This document shows, piece by piece, positions 975 to 15,939 of a stretch of 18,953 nucleotides of DNA. The stretch lies in the UHGV virus genome UHGV-1695118. One strand, written 5' to 3'. This stretch comes from a virus. The notes under the pieces are model-generated. The model was not told where the DNA came from. It did not search any database and saw only the letters and a list, made by a program, of their open reading frames with translations. The stretch's first letter is position 1. Each line of letters opens with the position of its first letter. A program made the position numbers and the translations under genes.

Positions 975-1279
975 CGTGTTTTCTCCTATGGTTAGAGTGA
1001 ACGCGCGGGCGGGCATCCCATTAGCATTAGATAGCAGTGACTGACCGCTCAACAGATCCCGCCGTTGCGTGATATTTGTTTTTCGCTTCGCAGCGACACC
1101 GGATTTTTAAAGAGCTTAAGGTAAGTGCCTTTTTGTGCCTTCCGTTATCTTTTTCCTTGCGTCTTTGCAAGTATGGCCTTACCTTGTCTGCAAGTTTACA
1201 AAATGGAATTTTAAGATCAAGGCTTAAAATACACGTTTTGTGACTTGCATCAAACTTTTTGAGGTTATAGGGTAGCGAC
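975..1279. promoter_or_regulatory. Divergent promoter/operator region between the repressor gene and the leftward operon
   Basis: About 300 bp non-coding between divergent genes. Contains palindromes CTTGC-N6-GCAAG (1156-1171) and CTTG-N4-CAAG (1183-1194), a TGTGA-N6-TCAAA element (1239-1254), and possible back-to-back promoters (minus strand -35 TTGATG 1253-1248 and -10 TATTTT 1231-1226; plus strand -35 GTGACT 1240-1245). Promoter assignments are weak. Confidence 0.55.
1083..1117 (-). promoter_or_regulatory. Candidate nutR-like site (boxA GCTCTTTAAAAA plus boxB hairpin UCGCU-GCGA-AGCGA) on the leftward transcript
   Basis: The minus strand reads AAGCTCTTTAAAAATCCGGTGTCGCTGCGAAGCGAAAAAC. The boxA matches the rrn/lambda boxA consensus (GCTCTTTAA), followed 8 nt later by a 5-bp stem with a GNRA-type loop. 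Confidence 0.4.
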
Positions 1280-1927
1280 ATGAAAACAAAATGGTATGAC
1301 TTAGCAAAGCAGCTCATGCGGGCGCAGGGCATGAGCCAGGATTCACTAGCGGATCGCATGGGGATAACTAAAGGCGGCCTGTCACACTGGCTGAACGGTC
1401 GCCGCGAGCCAAATCTTGAAGATATTGCGCGGATTATGCGAGAGCTTGGTCGTCGGCAGTTCACTGTTACACATGATGGTATGGTCATTGATGATTCTGT
1501 TTCTAATACACTTCAGGCCGTGCCGCCGCGTGATTTAGGTAGTTACCCGGTTATTGACTGGAAGGACACAGTAAACAATATGGATGACGCAAGGCGTTCA
1601 GCATTACGACACGTTACGACTAGCGTTATTTGTTCAGATGACAGTTACTGGCTGGTTGCCAAAGGTGAATCAATGAACGCGCCGCAGGGGTTGAGCATCC
1701 CGGCGGGGACGATGATACTTGTTGACCCGCACGCGCCAGCTATTGACGGCAAACTGGTTATAGCCCAGCTTGAGGAAGGGCAGATACCGACGTTTAAACA
1801 GTTGATTATTGATGGAGGTCAAAGGCTTTTACGTTCGCTCAATCCGCTGTATCCGCCAATCCCTATGAATCCAGAATCAAAAATTATAGGCGTGGTGGTT
1901 GATGCGAAGATCGTAAACCTGCCATAA
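1280..1927 (+). CDS. cI: CI/c2-type phage repressor (N-terminal HTH, C-terminal S24 LexA-like autopeptidase domain)
   Basis: 215 aa. C-terminal half (SYPVIDW...GESMNAPQGLSIPAGTMILVDP...GKLVIAQLEE...KIIGVVVDAKIVNLP) is close to the remembered P22 c2 C-terminal domain, with Ser (GESM) and Lys (GKLV) catalytic residues. N-terminal HTH (SQDSLADRMGITKGGLSHWLNGRREP). Confidence 0.93.
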   Translation: MKTKWYDLAKQLMRAQGMSQDSLADRMGITKGGLSHWLNGRREPNLEDIARIMRELGRRQFTVTHDGMVIDDSVSNTLQAVPPRDLGSYPVIDWKDTVNNMDDARRSALRHVTTSVICSDDSYWLVAKGESMNAPQGLSIPAGTMILVDPHAPAIDGKLVIAQLEEGQIPTFKQLIIDGGQRLLRSLNPLYPPIPMNPESKIIGVVVDAKIVNLP

Positions 1928-5177: not shown

Positions 5178-5499
5178 ATTCCACAAAGCGTATGACGCTA
5201 ACACAAACAAGCTATCACTATTTATCGAATTCGAACGCCGGATCGTGGTAGCGCCTTGGTCGCGGCGCTTTAATGACGCCGCCGGGCGTAGACAATTCGC
5301 GGTCGATATGCTGTTACGCGGCTGCGGCCTTATGCGTCCGCTATCTGATTTAAAACGAATGATGCCGGGATCGTTCGGTCAGATTGATGAAATAGAAATA
5401 AGCCCGGAAGAACTGAAACGTGAGCGTGATTTATTCCTTTCAAGCGAAGGAAACCCGTTTAATTCAGAAACTGAAATGAAATGGCATCATCCACTATAA
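5167..5499 (+). CDS. Hypothetical protein (110 aa)
   Basis: ORF-track ORF; GAGGTG 4 nt upstream of the ATG. Confidence 0.55.
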   Translation: MKIKFHKAYDANTNKLSLFIEFERRIVVAPWSRRFNDAAGRRQFAVDMLLRGCGLMRPLSDLKRMMPGSFGQIDEIEISPEELKRERDLFLSSEGNPFNSETEMKWHHPL

Positions 5500-5510
5500 G
5501 GGTAAATATT

Positions 5511-6131
5511 ATGAACAATATCAAAACGGCTTATTCACTCGGCAGCGAAGGCATGTTAATTACTCGCTACACAGAGGACGCGAGCTTTCACGAAGTGGTA
5601 ACTAAGGATTATCACGAAGTTTTAAAAGATATGGAAGCAGGAGTGTATGACAGTGACTTAAATCTGGCGCTACAGATTGTTGATATTATGATGGATGCAT
5701 CAATCCGCGATTACGTGTCTTTAAGCATGGAAGAAAAAACATCGGTAGCGCGTTATGTGTTCTGCCTCACTTTCGTAAGACGCATGGAGGAGGAATTCGG
5801 ACGCGCACCAGTGCCGGAAGATGTTGATCCGCTCGCGTTCGGAAGTGCTGTTATTTTCCCGTTGAACAAGGATCGGCTTGGCAGTGTTTCACTGCATTCT
5901 ATGCGCGCCCTGATGAAAAAGGTCTTTGAGGTTAAGATGTTGCAGAAATTTATTGAGGAAGGACACGAAGAAGTGAACGTTAAGGCGTTTATTCCGGTGC
6001 TTTACGGAAATTTTGTTGGCGATGATATGCGCGCTAATGAATTAGGCGTACAGGCGGCTATAGCTACGCTTAACGAAGCAATGAAAAGTGCACAGCCTAT
6101 TCATGAACAGGAAAAACGTGTACTGCATTAA
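5511..6131 (+). CDS. Hypothetical protein (206 aa; alternative start 5481)
   Basis: ORF-track frame 5481..6131. ATG 5511 is preferred because AAGGG lies 8 nt upstream. No recognisable motif. Confidence 0.6.
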   Translation: MNNIKTAYSLGSEGMLITRYTEDASFHEVVTKDYHEVLKDMEAGVYDSDLNLALQIVDIMMDASIRDYVSLSMEEKTSVARYVFCLTFVRRMEEEFGRAPVPEDVDPLAFGSAVIFPLNKDRLGSVSLHSMRALMKKVFEVKMLQKFIEEGHEEVNVKAFIPVLYGNFVGDDMRANELGVQAAIATLNEAMKSAQPIHEQEKRVLH

Positions 6132-6133
6132 CA

Positions 6134-6153
6134 GCGTGATTGCGATCACATAA
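6134..6153. promoter_or_regulatory. Palindromic element GCGTGAT-TGCG-ATCACATAA (copy 1)
   Basis: Inverted repeat GTGAT-N4-ATCAC read directly. Nearly identical to the element at 9714-9733. Fits a CRP-like TGTGA-N6-TCACA pattern at 9 of 10 positions. Confidence 0.5.
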
Positions 6154-6230
6154 ATATACATTTTGTATTGTGATTGCATATCCGTTTTGTAAGCCGAAAT
6201 CAAAAGGTTTACGGTGCGGAGGAAAACAAG

Positions 6231-6449
6231 ATGGCCCGCGAATTAATGCTTTATTGTGTTGAGGGTGGCGTAGGTAGTAATGCCTATGTCGCCGGGAAAG
6301 GCTATCCAGCCGATGAAGTGCTTTCTAATATGCACTTCCGGGAAAATGAAAGCCGGGTGTCTGTGTGGAAACGGTGCATTGATGGTATTGAGGTTGTAAG
6401 TATCGAACGGTATTTAGGCACGTTTGATTACGGTGTTATTGAGGCTTAA
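6231..6449 (+). CDS. Hypothetical protein (72 aa)
   Basis: ATG 6231 within ORF-track frame 6174..6449; GGAGG 8 nt upstream. Confidence 0.55.
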   Translation: MARELMLYCVEGGVGSNAYVAGKGYPADEVLSNMHFRENESRVSVWKRCIDGIEVVSIERYLGTFDYGVIEA

Positions 6450-6451
6450 TT

Positions 6452-6544
6452 ATGGACGACACATTGTTTTATATGTGCTGTTGCTGGGGTTTTATTGCCT
6501 TATGTCTGTTTATCAGGTGGTTTATTGAATACCATATGAGGTGA
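6452..6544 (+). CDS. Possible 30-aa hydrophobic Cys-rich peptide
   Basis: ATG 6452 with GAGG 7 nt upstream. Sequence MDDTLFYMCCCWGFIALCLFIRWFIEYHMR. Very short, so weak. Confidence 0.3.
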   Translation: MDDTLFYMCCCWGFIALCLFIRWFIEYHMR

Positions 6545-6547
6545 GGC

Positions 6548-6742
6548 ATGGAACAGAAAACTGATTATAGAATACCTGATGGCCTAAAATTAGTTGGCAT
6601 TGGTTTCGGGTGTAGATTTGTATCTGACGCAAAAGGAGCGATTTATTTAATACGTCTTATTGATGGCGTTCAACATATAAGGAGATTAGGAATTTACATC
6701 AAAGCATTCAGAAGAGGTTATTTAAAAACTCATGAAATTTAA
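6548..6742 (+). CDS. Hypothetical protein (64 aa)
   Basis: ORF-track ORF; GAGGTGAGG directly upstream. Confidence 0.55.
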   Translation: MEQKTDYRIPDGLKLVGIGFGCRFVSDAKGAIYLIRLIDGVQHIRRLGIYIKAFRRGYLKTHEI

Positions 6743-6935
6743 ACATTACATGGAATGGAAAATTCCAGAAGCAGCAACAAAGGCAGCGCCAGGAAATGTT
6801 TCTGGCGTTTATTTTTATATGGATGGCAAATGGTATTTCGGCAGCAGGCCGGATCGCTACTATCAAGAAATATGCAAGCCTCACGTATGGGATATTAAAG
6901 AGCGCGTGAAAGGCGGGGTAATTGAGGACGTTTAA
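6732..6935 (+). CDS. Hypothetical protein (67 aa)
   Basis: ORF-track ORF overlapping the upstream gene end; SD distant. Confidence 0.45.
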   Translation: MKFKHYMEWKIPEAATKAAPGNVSGVYFYMDGKWYFGSRPDRYYQEICKPHVWDIKERVKGGVIEDV

Positions 6936-6936
6936 A

Positions 6937-7164
6937 ATGATGCGTGCAATTATTGACTTCATTATTGGATGGTTATTTTGTTCTTTTTTCGTATTCTCAT
7001 GTATAGCTACGGTTTTTATTGGAATTTTATGTGGTGTGTCGTTTGTTACATGGGAGCTACCAGAAATTCCATCACCTGATGATGCGCTTTATATATTAAG
7101 GGTTATTATTGCTGTTAGTGTATTTGTTGGGTTCTTTTTCGCTGATTCTACTGATGATTTATAA
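6937..7164 (+). CDS. Small membrane protein (75 aa, two predicted transmembrane helices)
   Basis: ATG 6937 within ORF-track frame 6922..7164 (which uses a TTG start). Hydrophobic stretches IIDFIIGWLFCSFFVFSCIATVFIGILCGV and ILRVIIAVSVFVGFFF. Confidence 0.55.
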   Translation: MMRAIIDFIIGWLFCSFFVFSCIATVFIGILCGVSFVTWELPEIPSPDDALYILRVIIAVSVFVGFFFADSTDDL

Positions 7165-7165
7165 A

Positions 7166-7399
7166 ATGGCTTTATTTAACCTGTCAGAGCCGCAATTTAA
7201 CGCCGTAAAGACTGCCGCCCGCGCCGCGCTTTCGGCCTGCAAAGCGGAAGTAGAAAAGAACGGATACAGCGATAAAGCTACACGGCTGATATTAGAGAAG
7301 CATTATCGCAAGGTCGCCCCACTAATCAGTATTGAGCGCTTTGTGTGGTTGGTGGGGTATTTAAACAACCGTTGGGGAACGGAACAGGATTATTTCTAA
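7166..7399 (+). CDS. Hypothetical protein (77 aa)
   Basis: ATG 7166, one nt after the upstream stop, within ORF-track frame 7109..7399. Confidence 0.5.
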   Translation: MALFNLSEPQFNAVKTAARAALSACKAEVEKNGYSDKATRLILEKHYRKVAPLISIERFVWLVGYLNNRWGTEQDYF

Positions 7400-7408
7400 G
7401 GGGGCGTA

Positions 7409-7948
7409 ATGAAAAATGATTACGGCGGCAGCCATACGCCGAAAGAAATAAAAGACTTATGGCAAACGCCAAAACCTGTTTTTAGAGGAATGGATCGTGA
7501 ATTCGAATTCGTCGCGGATGTGGCGGCAAACAAGGCAAACGCATTAATCCCGCGATATATAACCGAAGAAATGGACACGCTCCATTATCCGTGGGGAGCG
7601 GTGGCGATGCCTGGCGAGTATGTCTGGATGAATCCGCCATATTCTAATCCGGGACCATTCGTTGATAAGGCGGCGCTTGAACATCAACGAAATCACATTG
7701 GCTGTGTAATGCTATTGCCCGCTGACATTTCTGTTAGCTGGTTTATGAACGGCGTGGAGACGGCAAACGAATGCCGATTAATCACGCGCGGGCGTCTGGC
7801 GTTTATCAATGCCGCTACTGGTAAGCCAGCAAGCGGAAACAATAAGGGTAGCTTGTTTTTGATCTGGCATCCACGGTGCAGACATAAATGTATTTTCACG
7901 CAGATAACACGTAAAGAGCTATATGCAAGAGGTGCAGAAAATGAGTAA
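7409..7948 (+). CDS. dam: Phage-type DNA N6-adenine methyltransferase (Dam-like)
   Basis: 179 aa. Catalytic motif NPPY in WMNPPYSNPGPF, with a downstream LLPADISVSWF segment typical of the small phage Dam family. AAGGGGG upstream of the ATG. Confidence 0.8.
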   Translation: MKNDYGGSHTPKEIKDLWQTPKPVFRGMDREFEFVADVAANKANALIPRYITEEMDTLHYPWGAVAMPGEYVWMNPPYSNPGPFVDKAALEHQRNHIGCVMLLPADISVSWFMNGVETANECRLITRGRLAFINAATGKPASGNNKGSLFLIWHPRCRHKCIFTQITRKELYARGAENE

Positions 7949-8453
7949 AGCGGCTGAATTGCTAAGACTTGCGGCTGAAACTATTGAGGCAAGAGGGGAA
8001 CAAAACGGATACGATCGAAAAGAAGAAAAATCAGCGCCAAAAATAGCGGCTATTTTCAACGCTAAGAAGGGGACAAATTTAACCCCACTTGATGTATGGG
8101 ATCTAATGATTTGCCTCAAGGAAGCGCGTTTAGGGGCTATTCTCGCTAATGGAACTGATCCGCTCGACACTCTTATAGACCTTATTGCTTATAACGCGCT
8201 TAAGGCCGAACAGATATTAGCGGAACGGGAGGAAGAACAAAAGAAAAAACAGGGCGTTTTTGATCTCCCTATCGGTGGATTGAAGAAAACTTTTGCTGAT
8301 CTTGCTGGACCAGAGCCATCTATTGTACCTGGGACAATCCCACCTGTGATGTTTTACGGTGGTGAGATTACTAATCGGCTTGATGTGAAGTTTGACAACG
8401 AATCGCTATTACGCGCGGCGGGGTATCATAAAAATGGAAAGGGTGACAATTGA
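7941..8453 (+). CDS. Hypothetical protein (170 aa) inside the putative modification module
   Basis: ATG 7941 with AAGAGG 8 nt upstream, within ORF-track frame 7923..8453. Overlaps the dam stop by 8 nt and the next gene by 20 nt. Confidence 0.6.
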   Translation: MSKAAELLRLAAETIEARGEQNGYDRKEEKSAPKIAAIFNAKKGTNLTPLDVWDLMICLKEARLGAILANGTDPLDTLIDLIAYNALKAEQILAEREEEQKKKQGVFDLPIGGLKKTFADLAGPEPSIVPGTIPPVMFYGGEITNRLDVKFDNESLLRAAGYHKNGKGDN

Positions 8454-8937
8454 CAGGTTATTAGCCTGCGTTTATGTCGCCGTTTTTGTGATCATCAATC
8501 TTATTGTTAATCATTGCGGCCCGTGGGTAATTCCGATCACCACGGTAGCCGCCGTGTGTGTCAATATGATGATCCGTGACCTCCTGTTATATGACGGCGG
8601 CCTGAAATGGTCGGCTACAACATGCGCCGCCGCTGGCGCAATCACGGTGCTGATAAATTACGACGCCGGAATGGTGGCGATCGCGTCATTCGTTGCGGTT
8701 GTTTCCGGTGCACTTATTTCTGGCGGCGTTTACCGGGTTTTGCCTGGTGGCTTTGATTCTAAACGTTGGCCTGCAAATATAGCGTCCGCCATTGGTGATG
8801 CGTTAATTTTTCCTACGCTATCGTTTATGGCGTTTATGCCGGAAATATCAGCTATGCAATTCATCTCAAAAATGGCAGCGGTAACGGTGATCACCATCAT
8901 TATGCGCCGCTATTTCACGTTTGAGGGTAGAAAATGA
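8434..8937 (+). CDS. Multi-pass membrane protein, possibly VUT/YhhQ-family (queuosine-precursor transporter-like)
   Basis: 167 aa from ATG 8434 within ORF-track frame 8392..8937. About 4-5 hydrophobic helices. Segment KRWPANIASAIGDALIFPTLSF resembles the remembered YhhQ segment RRWWLAPTASTLFGNVSDTLAFF. The family call is tentative. Confidence 0.35.
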   Translation: MERVTIDRLLACVYVAVFVIINLIVNHCGPWVIPITTVAAVCVNMMIRDLLLYDGGLKWSATTCAAAGAITVLINYDAGMVAIASFVAVVSGALISGGVYRVLPGGFDSKRWPANIASAIGDALIFPTLSFMAFMPEISAMQFISKMAAVTVITIIMRRYFTFEGRK

Positions 8938-9692
8938 GCAGGGCTAAACATTGGTTAAATAATTGGCTTAGAAGTTGGGTGGTGTGGTCGCTGTACGACG
9001 GCAGCGGGTACGCCGTTAAAGATTGGGCGGAAGCTGGATATAAGTGCTATTGCTTCAACTATGACGGCGCAAATCACGGAGATTATGAAGGCGTTAAAAT
9101 CATTCATCCAAATATTGAATACGTTAACGTCTGGATTGATAGCCATTTCCTGGTAATGTTCTCCCCTGAATTGTCTGTTTATCCAGAGCCTGACATTATC
9201 CTGGGCTTTCCTCCATGCGACGATCTCGCTGTGTCAGGCGCTCGCTGGTTCGTTGATAAATACAGGAAAGATCCTTGTTTTCAGAATAGGGCGGCAAGAA
9301 ACGCAATGTTGGTTGAATCTCTGGCTAACATGTATAACGTGCCGTGGATGGTGGAGAATCCTGTTGGTGTGCTGTCAACGCTATGGCGTAAACCGGATTT
9401 TATCTTCAATCCTTGCGCTTACGGTGGCTACCTGCCGGAAGATGACAAGCATCCTGCTTTCCCTGATGTTTACCCACCGCGCGACGCGTACACGAAGAAA
9501 ACTTGCATATGGTGCGGCAACGGATTCAGGCAGCCGCTTTTTAGACCTGTAGATCTTAACTCTGGTGATAACCCTGGGTGGGCGAAAACCGGAGGCAGGA
9601 CGAAACGAACAAAGATGATCCGCTCACTAACACCGCGTGGCTTTGCCCGTGCTGTATTCCTGGCTAACCATGACCGCGTTTTATCGGACTGA
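8934..9692 (+). CDS. Compact C5-cytosine methyltransferase-like protein
   Basis: 252 aa. ATG overlaps the upstream stop (ATGA). C5-MTase motifs occur in canonical order and spacing: motif I LYDGSG (about aa 20), motif IV GFPPCDDLAVSG with the Pro-Cys catalytic dyad (about aa 92), motif VI MVENPVG (about aa 130). Also carries CIWCGNGF. Short for this family. Confidence 0.5.
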   Translation: MSRAKHWLNNWLRSWVVWSLYDGSGYAVKDWAEAGYKCYCFNYDGANHGDYEGVKIIHPNIEYVNVWIDSHFLVMFSPELSVYPEPDIILGFPPCDDLAVSGARWFVDKYRKDPCFQNRAARNAMLVESLANMYNVPWMVENPVGVLSTLWRKPDFIFNPCAYGGYLPEDDKHPAFPDVYPPRDAYTKKTCIWCGNGFRQPLFRPVDLNSGDNPGWAKTGGRTKRTKMIRSLTPRGFARAVFLANHDRVLSD

Positions 9693-9713
9693 AGTTTACA
9701 AAATGGCGTCATT

Positions 9714-9733
9714 GCGTGATATGGATCACATAA
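9714..9733. promoter_or_regulatory. Palindromic element GCGTGAT-ATGG-ATCACATAA (copy 2)
   Basis: Shares GCGTGAT and ATCACATAA with the element at 6134-6153. Lies in the intergenic region upstream of the nin genes. A weak candidate promoter lies just downstream (-35 TTGTTC 9748-9753, -10 TATACT 9770-9775). Confidence 0.5.
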
Positions 9734-9851
9734 TGGCGCTTTTCGCCTTGTTCTGGTGTATCCATTTTGTATACTTCAAGCAAACAAAATGCTCTTTAAA
9801 AATCCGGCAGCGCTGAAATGCGTAGAAATCACCTGAAAAGGAGAGAGCATT

Positions 9852-10028
9852 ATGTCTTTTGATGATTACCAATGGCATGACGACTATGAACGAGAAAGCG
9901 TTATGCGTGCAATGTGCAATGTATGCAGCACGAAGAAAGGAGGCTGTAACGAGTGCAACGAATGCTTAGAACATTGGCTAAGGGCCGGACACGCCGAAAG
10001 GCTGAACGAAACAGAGAATCAAAAATAA
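9852..10028 (+). CDS. ninF: NinF-like small Cys-rich protein (58 aa)
   Basis: ATG 9852 with AAGGAGAG upstream. Sequence MSFDDYQWHDDYERESVMRAMCNVCSTKKGGCNECNECLEHWLRAGHAERLNETENQK. Positioned immediately upstream of ninG. Below the ORF-track cutoff; the NinF assignment is by position and size. Confidence 0.45.
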   Translation: MSFDDYQWHDDYERESVMRAMCNVCSTKKGGCNECNECLEHWLRAGHAERLNETENQK

Positions 10029-10042
10029 TCGGGGTGGTTTTT

Positions 10043-10648
10043 ATGCAAAACCCTAAAAAACCCATAAGACGCCGTTGCAAATGCTGCGGCGTTTTTTTTG
10101 AGCCTAAATATCACAATCAAACGTGGTGCAGCGATGAATGTCTGGAAGAACTGAAGTTTGACCAGCTATGCCGCGACCGTGAGAAGGCTATGAAGGCTAT
10201 GGAGCGGAAGAAACGCCGTGATAGCCAGAGGGAAGAACGCAACCGGAAGCGTAAACAGTTAAATCCGCGTAGTTATTGGATCAAACAAGTTCAAAATGTA
10301 TTTAACGCCTATATTCGCGAACGTGACGCGCGCTTGCCGTGTATATCTTGCGGGACTTACTACGGTGAGCAATGCGGGTGGGATGCAGGTCATTACAGGA
10401 CGGTAGCCGCCGCCGGACACCTTCGCTTCAACGAGGATAATTGCCATAAGCAATGTAGGCACTGCAACCAGACACTAGACGGCAACATCGGAGGGTATCG
10501 CCCGGCGCTGATTCGAAAAATTGGCCTCGCCAGGGTGGTAGCTCTGGAGAACAACAACGATACGCATAAATGGACGATTGCAGAATGTAAGGAGCTAATA
10601 AACATCTATCAGGCGAAATTGGACGCCTTAAGGAGAAAGGCAGCATGA
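10043..10648 (+). CDS. ninG: NinG / Rap-family recombination protein
   Basis: 201 aa from the internal ATG of ORF-track frame 9953..10648. Cys-rich N-terminus (RRCKCCGVFFEP...WCSDEC) and core (PRSYWIKQ...NAYIRERDARLPCISCG...WDAGHYRT...LRFNEDNCHKQC...) match remembered lambda NinG. Confidence 0.85.
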   Translation: MQNPKKPIRRRCKCCGVFFEPKYHNQTWCSDECLEELKFDQLCRDREKAMKAMERKKRRDSQREERNRKRKQLNPRSYWIKQVQNVFNAYIRERDARLPCISCGTYYGEQCGWDAGHYRTVAAAGHLRFNEDNCHKQCRHCNQTLDGNIGGYRPALIRKIGLARVVALENNNDTHKWTIAECKELINIYQAKLDALRRKAA

Positions 10649-11052: not shown

Positions 11053-11231
11053 AAAACGAAGTTAAAGATCTGCAAATAGATATTCAGCGCGACGAGCGTG
11101 ATTTAGAGACGGTCCGACAAATCCAGGCTTTCCACATGCGCGAATTACTTGCGCTGAAAGAGTTCGAAAGAAAGCTGGTGCAATCCATTTCTGATCGTAA
11201 ACGGCTGGCGGCGCGTTATGAGGGCAAATAA
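11049..11231 (+). CDS. Small charged coiled-coil protein (60 aa)
   Basis: ORF-track ORF translationally coupled on both sides (ATGA with rusA, TAATG with Q). Confidence 0.5.
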   Translation: MKNEVKDLQIDIQRDERDLETVRQIQAFHMRELLALKEFERKLVQSISDRKRLAARYEGK

Positions 11232-11959
11232 TGAATTTAGAATCCATTCTAAAATTCCACTTTCCTAAATCACCGCGATTATCTGACGAAAGCCGGGGCA
11301 CGTCCCCGGACGCTCTTAATACGACGGATGCGCTAACCGCTGCGGGTATGGCGCAATCGCGCGTAGAGCTTGGATATAGCGCTTTTTTAGGGAAGATGGA
11401 ACTATCACAAGCCGAAAAACATAGGGCCGTAGTTTTGCTTACAGAGCGTTTAAGGGCTATGGCGAAAGATTACGAATACGTGATGGAGTTAAACGAGGAT
11501 CAGCGCAATGGACTTATTATTCTTGTTGCCGTTTTCGCGTTTCGGGATTATTGCCAGAGTGCGGCGACCGAAAAAGTTTGCCCTAAGTGCGGCGGCCACG
11601 GGCATTTACCAAATCCATATTGCAAATACACATCGACAATTTGTTCGCGGTGCAACGGCAAAGGCTACGTTAAAAACCATTGCCAACGTTGCAAGGGGCG
11701 CGGAGAAGTACCGGATAAAGCAGCCAGTGAAGCGGCGGAAATGCCAGTATTCAAAACGTGCCAGCATTGCGGCGGGCGCGGGTACTCGCGTTTCCCGGTA
11801 GATCTCGTCCGGCAGGCCGTTAACCAGCTTGTTTTCCCGGTAAGCAGATCAACATGGTGGAAGAAATACCGGGTTTTCTATGAAGACGCCATAGCGGAGC
11901 TATTCAAAGAAGAGGCCCGCGCGGAAAGCGAAATTAAACGAGTGACACGGGGTGAATAA
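11231..11959 (+). CDS. Q: Late-gene antitermination protein Q (lambda Q type)
   Basis: 242 aa. N-terminus MNLESILKFHFPKSPRLSDESRGTSPDALNTTDALTAAGMAQSR parallels the remembered lambda Q start. Four CxxCxGxG zinc-finger motifs. Confidence 0.88.
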   Translation: MNLESILKFHFPKSPRLSDESRGTSPDALNTTDALTAAGMAQSRVELGYSAFLGKMELSQAEKHRAVVLLTERLRAMAKDYEYVMELNEDQRNGLIILVAVFAFRDYCQSAATEKVCPKCGGHGHLPNPYCKYTSTICSRCNGKGYVKNHCQRCKGRGEVPDKAASEAAEMPVFKTCQHCGGRGYSRFPVDLVRQAVNQLVFPVSRSTWWKKYRVFYEDAIAELFKEEARAESEIKRVTRGE

Positions 11960-12063
11960 TGGACAAGTTAGAAATAAACGATCAGTTTGCCGTTATCTTA
12001 TTCGAAGATAAAACAGGCGGCGCATGTTGTAAAAAAAAGTCACTGGTGCTGAAGCGCGCTTAA
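11959..12063 (+). CDS. Possible 34-aa ORF coupled to Q (TAATG)
   Basis: ATG overlaps the Q stop. Sequence MDKLEINDQFAVILFEDKTGGACCKKKSLVLKRA. No independent support. Confidence 0.2.
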   Translation: MDKLEINDQFAVILFEDKTGGACCKKKSLVLKRA

Positions 12064-12147
12064 TATTGGGTATGGCAAGCGCGTTAAATGATGGCGAATT
12101 GCCCGCCATCCCTGTTAAGCCAGTGCATATCTATAAAAGGGGCGACA

Positions 12148-15171: not shown

Positions 15172-15390
15172 ATGATTTTAACGTGTAACGAATCGAGATT
15201 AGGTTGTTTTGAGGAAGGAGCACAGTACACGGCTGAAAAACCGATGGGATTGTCTCCTAAATTTCCGTTTATCGTCGTGACTGACACTTACGGTCACTTA
15301 TGGTATGCAGGGCCGCTAGGCGGTATTGGTCGTTATGTTGTCCGTAGTTTGGATGGGGCGATGAAGGTTACTTTTACGGAAGAAACGTAA
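15172..15390 (+). CDS. Tandem paralog family member D (72 aa)
   Basis: Sequence MILTCNESRLGCFEEGAQYTAEKPMGLSPKFPFIVVTDTYGHLWYAG. ATG 15172 within ORF-track frame 15163..15390 (which uses a GTG start). Confidence 0.55.
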   Translation: MILTCNESRLGCFEEGAQYTAEKPMGLSPKFPFIVVTDTYGHLWYAGPLGGIGRYVVRSLDGAMKVTFTEET

Positions 15391-15416
15391 ATGTGATCTG
15401 TATTACAAGGTTTACG

Positions 15417-15450
15417 AAATGGCATTGTTTCGGCAGTGCCATTTTGTTAT
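15417..15450 (+). terminator. Rho-independent terminator-like hairpin after the paralog array
   Basis: AAATGGCATTG-TTTCGG-CAGTGCCATTT: 11-bp stem with one G-U pair and a 6-nt loop, followed by TGTTAT. Confidence 0.5.
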
Positions 15451-15488
15451 AAAGAAGCTGAAGAGAGAACGATGCGGAGGGTAGAAAA

Positions 15489-15767
15489 ATGAAACGCTGG
15501 ATTAACAAAGAAGTCGAATCTCGCTTAAACGCATTTTGGGAGATGGTGGAGAAAGAAGACCCAGCACACGCTGCAAGCCCTTACCTGAACAACATCGAAT
15601 ATCACTACATTGCAGCAAACAACGCGGAGTTCGAAGAAGAAGGTGGAGCCGACAAGTTCGCACAAAGCAACGCATTCAACAACGCAAACGAAATGATGAT
15701 GGCAGTCATCGAACAGGCAGAGGAAGACTACGAATGCAAATCACTTGAATTCGCACGTATGGCATAA
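15489..15767 (+). CDS. Acidic small protein (92 aa)
   Basis: ORF-track ORF with GGAGGG upstream. Strongly Asp/Glu-rich (EFEEEGGADKF, EQAEEDYE). Confidence 0.6.
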   Translation: MKRWINKEVESRLNAFWEMVEKEDPAHAASPYLNNIEYHYIAANNAEFEEEGGADKFAQSNAFNNANEMMMAVIEQAEEDYECKSLEFARMA

Positions 15768-15777
15768 GGGGGAAACC

Positions 15778-15918
15778 ATGAACGCTAACGCTAAATATCC
15801 GGCCTGGGTTTTCGAACTGTACGCAAGATACTTTGAATTACTGGCACAAGGTGAAGAAGCATTAAGCATTGACGAGTACGCGGAGTGCTTAGGGTTTAAA
15901 GGAGACGAAGAAGCATAA
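15778..15918 (+). CDS. Hypothetical small protein (46 aa)
   Basis: ATG 15778 with AAGGGGG 5 nt upstream. Sequence MNANAKYPAWVFELYARYFELLAQGEEALSIDEYAECLGFKGDEEA. Below the ORF-track cutoff. Confidence 0.45.
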   Translation: MNANAKYPAWVFELYARYFELLAQGEEALSIDEYAECLGFKGDEEA

Positions 15919-15923
15919 AACAC

Positions 15924-15939
15924 GGGGCCGGATGGCCCC
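15924..15939. other. Perfect hairpin GGGGCC-GGAT-GGCCCC in an intergenic spacer
   Basis: 6-bp GC stem with a GGAT loop. No U-tract on the plus strand; a moderately T-rich tract follows on the minus strand. Confidence 0.4.

Follow-up and report, generated by a model that had tools for sequence, protein, structure and literature searches.

The CRP consensus is written AAATGTGA-N6-TCACATTT, and the term class I promoter is used here after Busby and Ebright. At lacP1, where the assignment of the promoter elements is textbook knowledge, the layout is TGTGAGTTAGCTCACT, 17 bp, TTTACA, 18 bp and TATGTT (the sequence used was 100% identical to E. coli). An influence of cyclic AMP (cAMP) on lambdoid lysogeny has been known since the early 1970s; to our knowledge, and with no systematic search made, no direct CRP target has been described in a lambdoid regulatory region, and we know of no CRP-type site at lambda pL or pR. 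Our literature search for CRP-regulated prophage promoters returned nothing directly relevant. The mEpimmI phages, which include mEp021, are Nus-dependent, non-lambdoid temperate coliphages with one immunity common to the whole group, in which nutL precedes the repressor gene, nutR1 precedes gp17 and nutR2 follows a cytosine methyltransferase gene (PMC11893012). Neither CRP nor phage promoters are mentioned in that paper, the sole 'promoter' there being Ptac (PMC11893012). Here we analyzed an 18,953-nt stretch of DNA (UHGV virus genome UHGV-1695118; hereafter the window, to which all positions refer), which is ~88% identical over 5 kb to mEp021, mEp515, mEp010 and MagusPhagus and represents the early region of a temperate coliphage of the mEp021-like (mEpimmI) type, with E. 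coli as host. The window carries two copies of a 20-bp palindrome, and from observed sequence match, enrichment, fixed spacing and conservation we give an even chance to the reading that these palindromes are candidate class-I-type CRP sites, each heading a copy of a phage promoter cassette that recurs in the window; that the promoters are active, that CRP binds and in which direction it regulates are predictions.

The palindromes are real and non-random. Copy 1 (GCGTGATTGCGATCACATAA, 6134-6153) contains the CRP-type core CGTGA-TTGCGA-TCACA at 6135-6150 (centre 6142.5) and copy 2 (GCGTGATATGGATCACATAA, 9714-9733) the core CGTGA-TATGGA-TCACA at 9715-9730 (centre 9722.5). Both lie exactly where a first-pass annotation had located them, and the two 20-mers are identical at 17 of 20 positions rather than sharing the 16 reported at that stage. 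A related TGTGA-N6-TCAAA was also confirmed at 1239-1254 (TGTGACTTGCATCAAA, TGTGA-CTTGCA-TCAAA; centre 1246.5, one good half-site), and the present analysis added a fourth CRP-type site at 15392-15407 (TGTGATCTGTATTACA, TGTGA-TCTGTA-TTACA; centre 15399.5). Copy 1 begins 3 nt past the preceding gene's stop codon (6129-6131), and the 15392 site 2 nt past the stop codon at 15388-15390. All four sites are intergenic in a window of which ~10% lies outside open reading frames (ORFs; a rough sum of the inter-ORF gaps). Copy 1 does not occupy one of the two largest intergenic gaps, as had been proposed, for its gap at 6132-6230 measures 99 bp and those at 11960-12087 and 15768-15931 are larger. The 20-mer pattern matched twice in the window against 0.24 expected, while TGTGA-N6-TCACA with at most one mismatch matched four times against 0.47 expected, a count reached in 0 of 200 shuffles. 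Under the same tolerance, the complete mEp021 genome contained seven sites (1.66 ± 1.24 expected; seven reached in 0 of 300 first-order Markov simulations), five of which lie in annotated intergenic regions.

Two of these five are new sites in the late region of mEp021, with one mismatch each (MH706966.1, 42075-42090 and 44001-44016; 15376-15391 and 17302-17317 of locus L049). Both are in divergent intergenic regions upstream of leftward moron promoters: one lies 27 bp (17 plus one helical turn of 10) from TTCACA-17-TATATA, and the other 19 bp from TTGATA-17-TATATT, which heads an operon with a putative antirepressor. An exact-pattern scan of IMG/VR with GTGAT-N4-ATCACATAA was set aside, as it returned mostly unrelated chance matches, with the downstream promoter motif in mEpimmI contigs only.

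Each of the four sites in the window stands at the head of the same order of elements, namely xGTGA-N6-TCACA, 17-18 bp, a TTGNNN -35-like hexamer, a 16-17 bp spacer with CC(A/G)TTTTG and a TAWAMT -10-like hexamer. The four cassette regions align with small gaps at most (mean column identity 66%), and the columns invariant across these paralogues include the core TGAT and T-ACA, the -35 TTG and CC-TTTTGTA. The leftward early promoter-like element pL (1193-1220, minus strand) consists of -35 TTGATC at 1220 to 1215, a 16-bp spacer with CCATTTTG and -10 TAAACT at 1198 to 1193. Downstream of the 9714 copy lies a promoter-like element that we call PR2 (9748-9775, plus strand; -35 TTGTTC at 9748-9753, 16-bp spacer with CCATTTTG, -10 TATACT at 9770-9775), which is homologous to pL as a 37-nt inverted repeat of 73% identity. 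The element of the 6134 cassette (6168-6195, plus strand) has -35 TTGTGA at 6168-6173, a 16-bp spacer with CCGTTTTG and -10 TAAGCC at 6190-6195, followed by a gene that starts at 6231, and that of the 15392 cassette (15425-15453, plus strand) has -35 TTGTTT at 15425-15430, a spacer with CCATTTTG and a TG-extended -10 TATAAA at 15448-15453, followed by a gene that starts at 15489. From core to -35 hexamer the distance is 17 bp in each of the three rightward cassettes and 18 bp at pL, where the 1239 site had previously been placed over the -35 region. The cassette -35 hexamers are weak (3-4 of 6 consensus positions), which fits activator dependence.

Two side observations concern these promoter-like elements. 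The 6134 -10 reads TAAGCC in this phage, without the final T, compared with TAAACT in 7 of 22 relatives, and this cassette may be decaying here. TATACTTCAA at 9770-9780 resembles the -10 region preferred by sigma-S, TATACT followed by a TAA-like sequence, so stationary-phase RNA polymerase might transcribe from the cassette promoters.

CRP contacts G5, G7 and A8, leaves positions 4 and 6 uncontacted and tolerates C at position 4 without loss of affinity, and the N6 of its sites is barely conserved (PMC2504297). In the cores at 6135-6150 and 9715-9730, all CRP contact bases are present in both halves and the sole deviation is the C at uncontacted position 4, whereas at 1239 and at 15392 one of the two half-sites is complete. 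The likeness to lacP1 and other E. coli class I promoters covers a two-fold symmetric xGTGA-N6-TCACA with G5, G7 and A8 intact and N6 unconstrained, a weak core promoter and a core-to--35 distance in lacP1 of 17 bp, exactly as in the three rightward phage cassettes. The phage sites differ from class I promoters in being phage-borne and repeated as a cassette, and from lacP1 in a spacer of 16 bp instead of 18.

We further examined conservation in 26 IMG/VR loci recovered via the upstream protein and 18 recovered via the protein downstream of 15392, to which three GenBank phages and two E. coli prophages were added; these relatives are 10-18% diverged across the site regions. The 9600-10000 region is present in only 35 of 5426 complete E. 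coli genomes; among the strain names listed we recognised no standard laboratory model, so that published transcript-start or ChIP data would not be expected to include it. A repressor-based search of species-representative genomes gave no match, so that no relatives from outside E. coli were obtained. In all relatives examined the sites are present at equivalent positions, the opposite of the lack of conservation that the first-pass annotation had named as evidence against its proposal. At 9714, all 21 IMG/VR and GenBank variants have zero or one mismatch, eight of them being perfect TGTGA-N6-TCACA; the sole variable position of the pentamers across the 21 is the first (position 4, C/T), and N6 varies at five of six positions. 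This site is also kept at one mismatch in two E. coli prophages, and in its cassette the -10 TATACT is invariant and the -35 TTGT is conserved amid variable neighbouring columns. Variants of the 6134 site have zero to two core mismatches, with all four bases at position 4 and N6 varying at three of six positions; in the most divergent prophage the equivalent site reads CGTGA-CATCGC-TCACA, both inner palindrome positions having changed non-compensatorily and the pentamers being kept. At 15392 no variant departs from GTGATCT in the left half, the majority form among relatives has TCACA and hence a perfect core, and N6 varies at three of six positions, whereas at pL both pentamers are invariant in 16 variants and N6 varies in four. 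The 6-bp separation of the half-sites is kept in all variants, and the distance from core to -10 shows no indels in the three rightward cassettes (22 variants at 6134) and a 1-bp insertion in one of 16 pL variants.

This variation fits the published CRP contact map. Of the earlier proposal that the palindromes are either CRP sites or operators for a dimeric regulator, the first part gains in silico support (near-consensus cores, free N6, lacP1-like spacing and conservation), and an immunity operator is disfavoured. The left edge of the 15392 site coincides exactly with a mosaic breakpoint (15388-15392), and this cassette edge is a mosaic recombination junction. In four relatives, another upstream gene abuts the 15392 cassette, and homology restarts exactly at GTGATCT.

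Several observations weigh against the CRP reading. The pL site has one good half-site only, and at 15392 roughly half of the variants lack the right half. Changes also reach contact positions, with GTAAT in three variants and TTACA in four at 6134; the 15392 site of the window itself likewise has TTACA. The site centres lie 47.5-48.5 bp from the first -10 base, giving a predicted centre of about -59.5 or -60.5 and not the canonical -61.5, as follows from the 16-bp spacer. The cassette promoters are putative, deduced from homology and weak consensus, and none of them passed a 9-of-12 promoter consensus scan. Since the four cassettes are paralogous, the four sites do not represent four independent events. 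Finally, most arm substitutions also permit G-U wobble pairing in an RNA hairpin, and conservation at 9714 spans the whole 34-nt hairpin described below, beyond what CRP would require.

The closest described counterpart of the downstream arrangement is early antitermination in lambda. As in lambda, an early promoter is followed by boxA and boxB, both at pL and nutL and at the 9748-9775 element and nutR2. NutL (1083-1115, minus strand) has boxA GCTCTTTAAAAA at 1115 to 1104 and a boxB hairpin UCGCU-GCGA-AGCGA at 1096 to 1083, with the pL cassette situated upstream of it, and nutR2 (9791-9823, plus strand) has boxA GCTCTTTAAAAA at 9791-9802 and a boxB hairpin GCGC-UGAAAU-GCGU at 9810-9823; both positions agree with the published map (PMC11893012). 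The -10 of PR2 ends 15 bp upstream of nutR2, which itself lies 58 bp downstream of copy 2. pR (2051-2079) is near-consensus and invariant in relatives (TTGACT at 2051-2056, 17 bp, TATATT at 2074-2079), and a boxA-like GCACTTTAAAAA follows it at 2122-2133. Hence each of the three nut sites has its own promoter-like element ahead of it (regions 1083-1220 on the minus strand, 2051-2133 and 9748-9823). The N-like protein that reads such units is Gp17 in mEp021. The differences from lambda are that there are three nut sites here, each with such an element, and that two of the nut-linked promoters bear an upstream CRP-type site. From the homology to pL and the invariant -10, we infer that PR2 is a previously unrecognised, putative internal promoter, which would place nutR2 in a transcription unit of its own instead of making it a second site on the pR transcript. 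The palindromes themselves were rejected as boxB or nut elements, as they have no GCTCTTTAA-like boxA, their loops are UGCG and AUGG rather than A-rich, and the real nut sites map elsewhere.

If the candidate CRP sites work as at lacP1, CRP-cAMP would bind ~60 bp upstream of the transcript start, and the bound CRP would recruit RNA polymerase via the alpha C-terminal domain in the class I manner, raising transcription from the four promoters. The pL transcript would pass nutL into the helix-turn-helix (HTH) and replication genes, the internal promoter 15 bp upstream of nutR2 would read into ninG and Q, and the predicted terminator t4, a hairpin tipped by the 9714 copy, would close the upstream unit; the 6134 and 15392 cassettes would be two further activated units, without nut sites. 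Early phage transcription may in this way be tied to host carbon status. In its fullest form, the proposal is that the mEpimmI family carries a portable cassette of CRP site and weak promoter at pL, at a hidden nutR2/Q promoter that loads the N-like antiterminator and at several accessory blocks, so that the replication operon and the late-gene route would be gated by host cAMP-CRP; we hold this wider scheme tentatively, as possible but not probable.

Were it true, there would be a direct molecular link from carbon status to the lysis-lysogeny programme, and the third nut site would be explained by having its own promoter. The candidate CRP sites stand at lac-like positions on the early-left promoter and on the promoter that would feed nutR2 and Q in a prevalent, recently defined gut coliphage group. 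These phages differ from lambda in an 'extra' nut site, nutR2, for which a separate transcription unit is suggested here, and predicted t4 can be re-read as a terminator combined with an activator site. Even if they are not bound by CRP, the elements remain a conserved, unassigned regulatory site in an under-studied phage family.

We ranked three rival explanations below the CRP reading, the foremost being that the palindromes are operators for a dimeric regulator of the phage, such as its CI-like repressor, the HTH protein encoded at the head of the pL operon or another protein, and that the likeness to CRP sites is coincidental. The phage does encode a lambda-CI-like repressor (1280-1927, plus strand; HTH_3 and Peptidase_S24 domains), an HTH protein is annotated just left of pL in the mEp021 record (MH706966), and pL and the repressor gene flank the 1239 site, whose pentamers are invariant. 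Part of that site, TGACTTGCA at 1241-1249, recurs inverted as TGACTCGCA at 2079-2087 over the pR -10/start region, and this pair may be closer to, or part of, the true immunity operator. A second motif decorates the same promoters, so that phage-specific factors probably act there. However, no palindrome occurs at the invariant pR (TTGACT-17-TATATT), which an immunity repressor must control, and the sites are single, unclustered and poorly placed for repression, ~25 bp ahead of the -35 hexamers. An immunity operator, which would have sites over the cores of both pL and pR, usually in adjacent copies, was therefore rejected: pR (2051-2079) has none, and pL has only one, 18 bp upstream of its -35. 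Moreover, the variation tracks the CRP contact map, with position 4 and N6 free, and the copies at 6134 and 15392 drift among phages of one shared immunity (PMC11893012). Taken together, we regard a phage regulator as an unlikely binder of the palindromes.

The second motif, TACAAAATGG, matched 11 times with at most one mismatch against 2.3 expected (0 of 200 shuffles), including 1197-1206, 1285-1294, 2040-2049, 6158-6167 (minus strand), 6182-6191 (minus strand), 9697-9706, 9762-9771 (minus strand), 15413-15422 and 15439-15448 (minus strand). It is found just upstream of the pR -35 and, in the pL-type cassettes, inverted at the spacer and -10. The matches often form inverted pairs 22-70 bp apart, and the motif also occurs at the late-region moron promoters of mEp021. 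Candidate binders include the phage repressor and other factors, as well as a Fis-like or UP-element role.

The next explanation places the shared function in RNA, with a hairpin after the upstream stop codon acting as terminator, 3'-end stabiliser or processing site and the CRP likeness being incidental. Three copies begin 2-22 nt past a stop codon, and the 9714 copy forms the apex of a 34-nt hairpin (9706-9739, plus strand; -17.1 kcal/mol, z -4.5) followed by TTTTCGCC, with TTTT at 9740-9743. The hairpin persists in 23 variants, with energies of -13 to -22 kcal/mol, is annotated as TERM_4 in the mEp021 record MH706966 and, judged by its position and number, matches predicted t4 on the published map (PMC11893012, Fig. 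7); wobble pairing survives most of the arm substitutions (C to T, A to G). A stable hairpin, however, is present in only one of the four copies, since the 6134 copy lacks an extended stem and folds weakly (-3.9 kcal/mol, z -1.0, no T-run; 0 kcal/mol in three relatives) and the 15392 and 1239 regions are indistinguishable from shuffles. No compensatory pairs were detected among the variants of the 9706-9739 hairpin, and the T-run of this predicted terminator is short and unconserved past 9739, with 2-6 T in the next 8 nt among relatives. The 3' arm is missing from half of the 15392 variants, with GTGATCT of the left arm unchanged throughout, and an RNA function leaves unexplained both the fixed distance to the -35 and -10 elements and the presence of sites in divergent, non-transcribed spacers. 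A terminator scan of the window did not list the 9706-9739 hairpin, and Rfam gave no match at gathering thresholds; with E up to 1 over 5900-10100, it gave only a chance snoRNA match. We therefore rejected a common RNA hairpin as the shared function, which we judge improbable, and concluded that the 9714 copy carries two overlapping signals, the stable hairpin not being a property common to the copies.

The weakest alternative, that the palindrome has no function of its own and is a passenger in a promoter cassette duplicated and spread by recombination at module boundaries, persisting by descent and the general similarity of these phages, would account for the paralogy of the four cassettes, the low divergence of the relatives (10-18%), the breakpoint at the left edge of the 15392 site and the decay of the 6134 and 15392 copies, but seems very unlikely to us because the core-to--35 linker differs almost wholly between paralogues while pentamers and spacing persist like the -35 TTG and the -10 region, because N6 varies and the pentamers stay, and because independent sites at helical-phase-compatible spacing occur at unrelated moron promoters. 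Regulation through Dam and GATC was considered separately and rejected: GATC lies inside three copies and is lost in several 9714 variants that keep TGTGA and TCACA.

Gene identities in the window were taken from annotated records of relatives and from Pfam. Besides the repressor gene, they comprise the N-like Gp17 (2427-2717), a hypothetical gene (5481-6131), the cytosine methyltransferase (8934-9692), NinG (9953-10648), Q (11231-11959) and lysis genes from 17724. The annotated start of the repressor differs between records, giving 215 aa in mEp515 and in the ORF found here and 198 aa in mEp021. The longer form starts 9 nt past TATAGG, so that its transcript could be leaderless or very short-leadered. 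We also observed three TCATGACC-containing units with an 11-bp period at 283-323, inside the coding region of the leftward replication protein, which look like iterons when compared with the O/ori arrangement of lambda.

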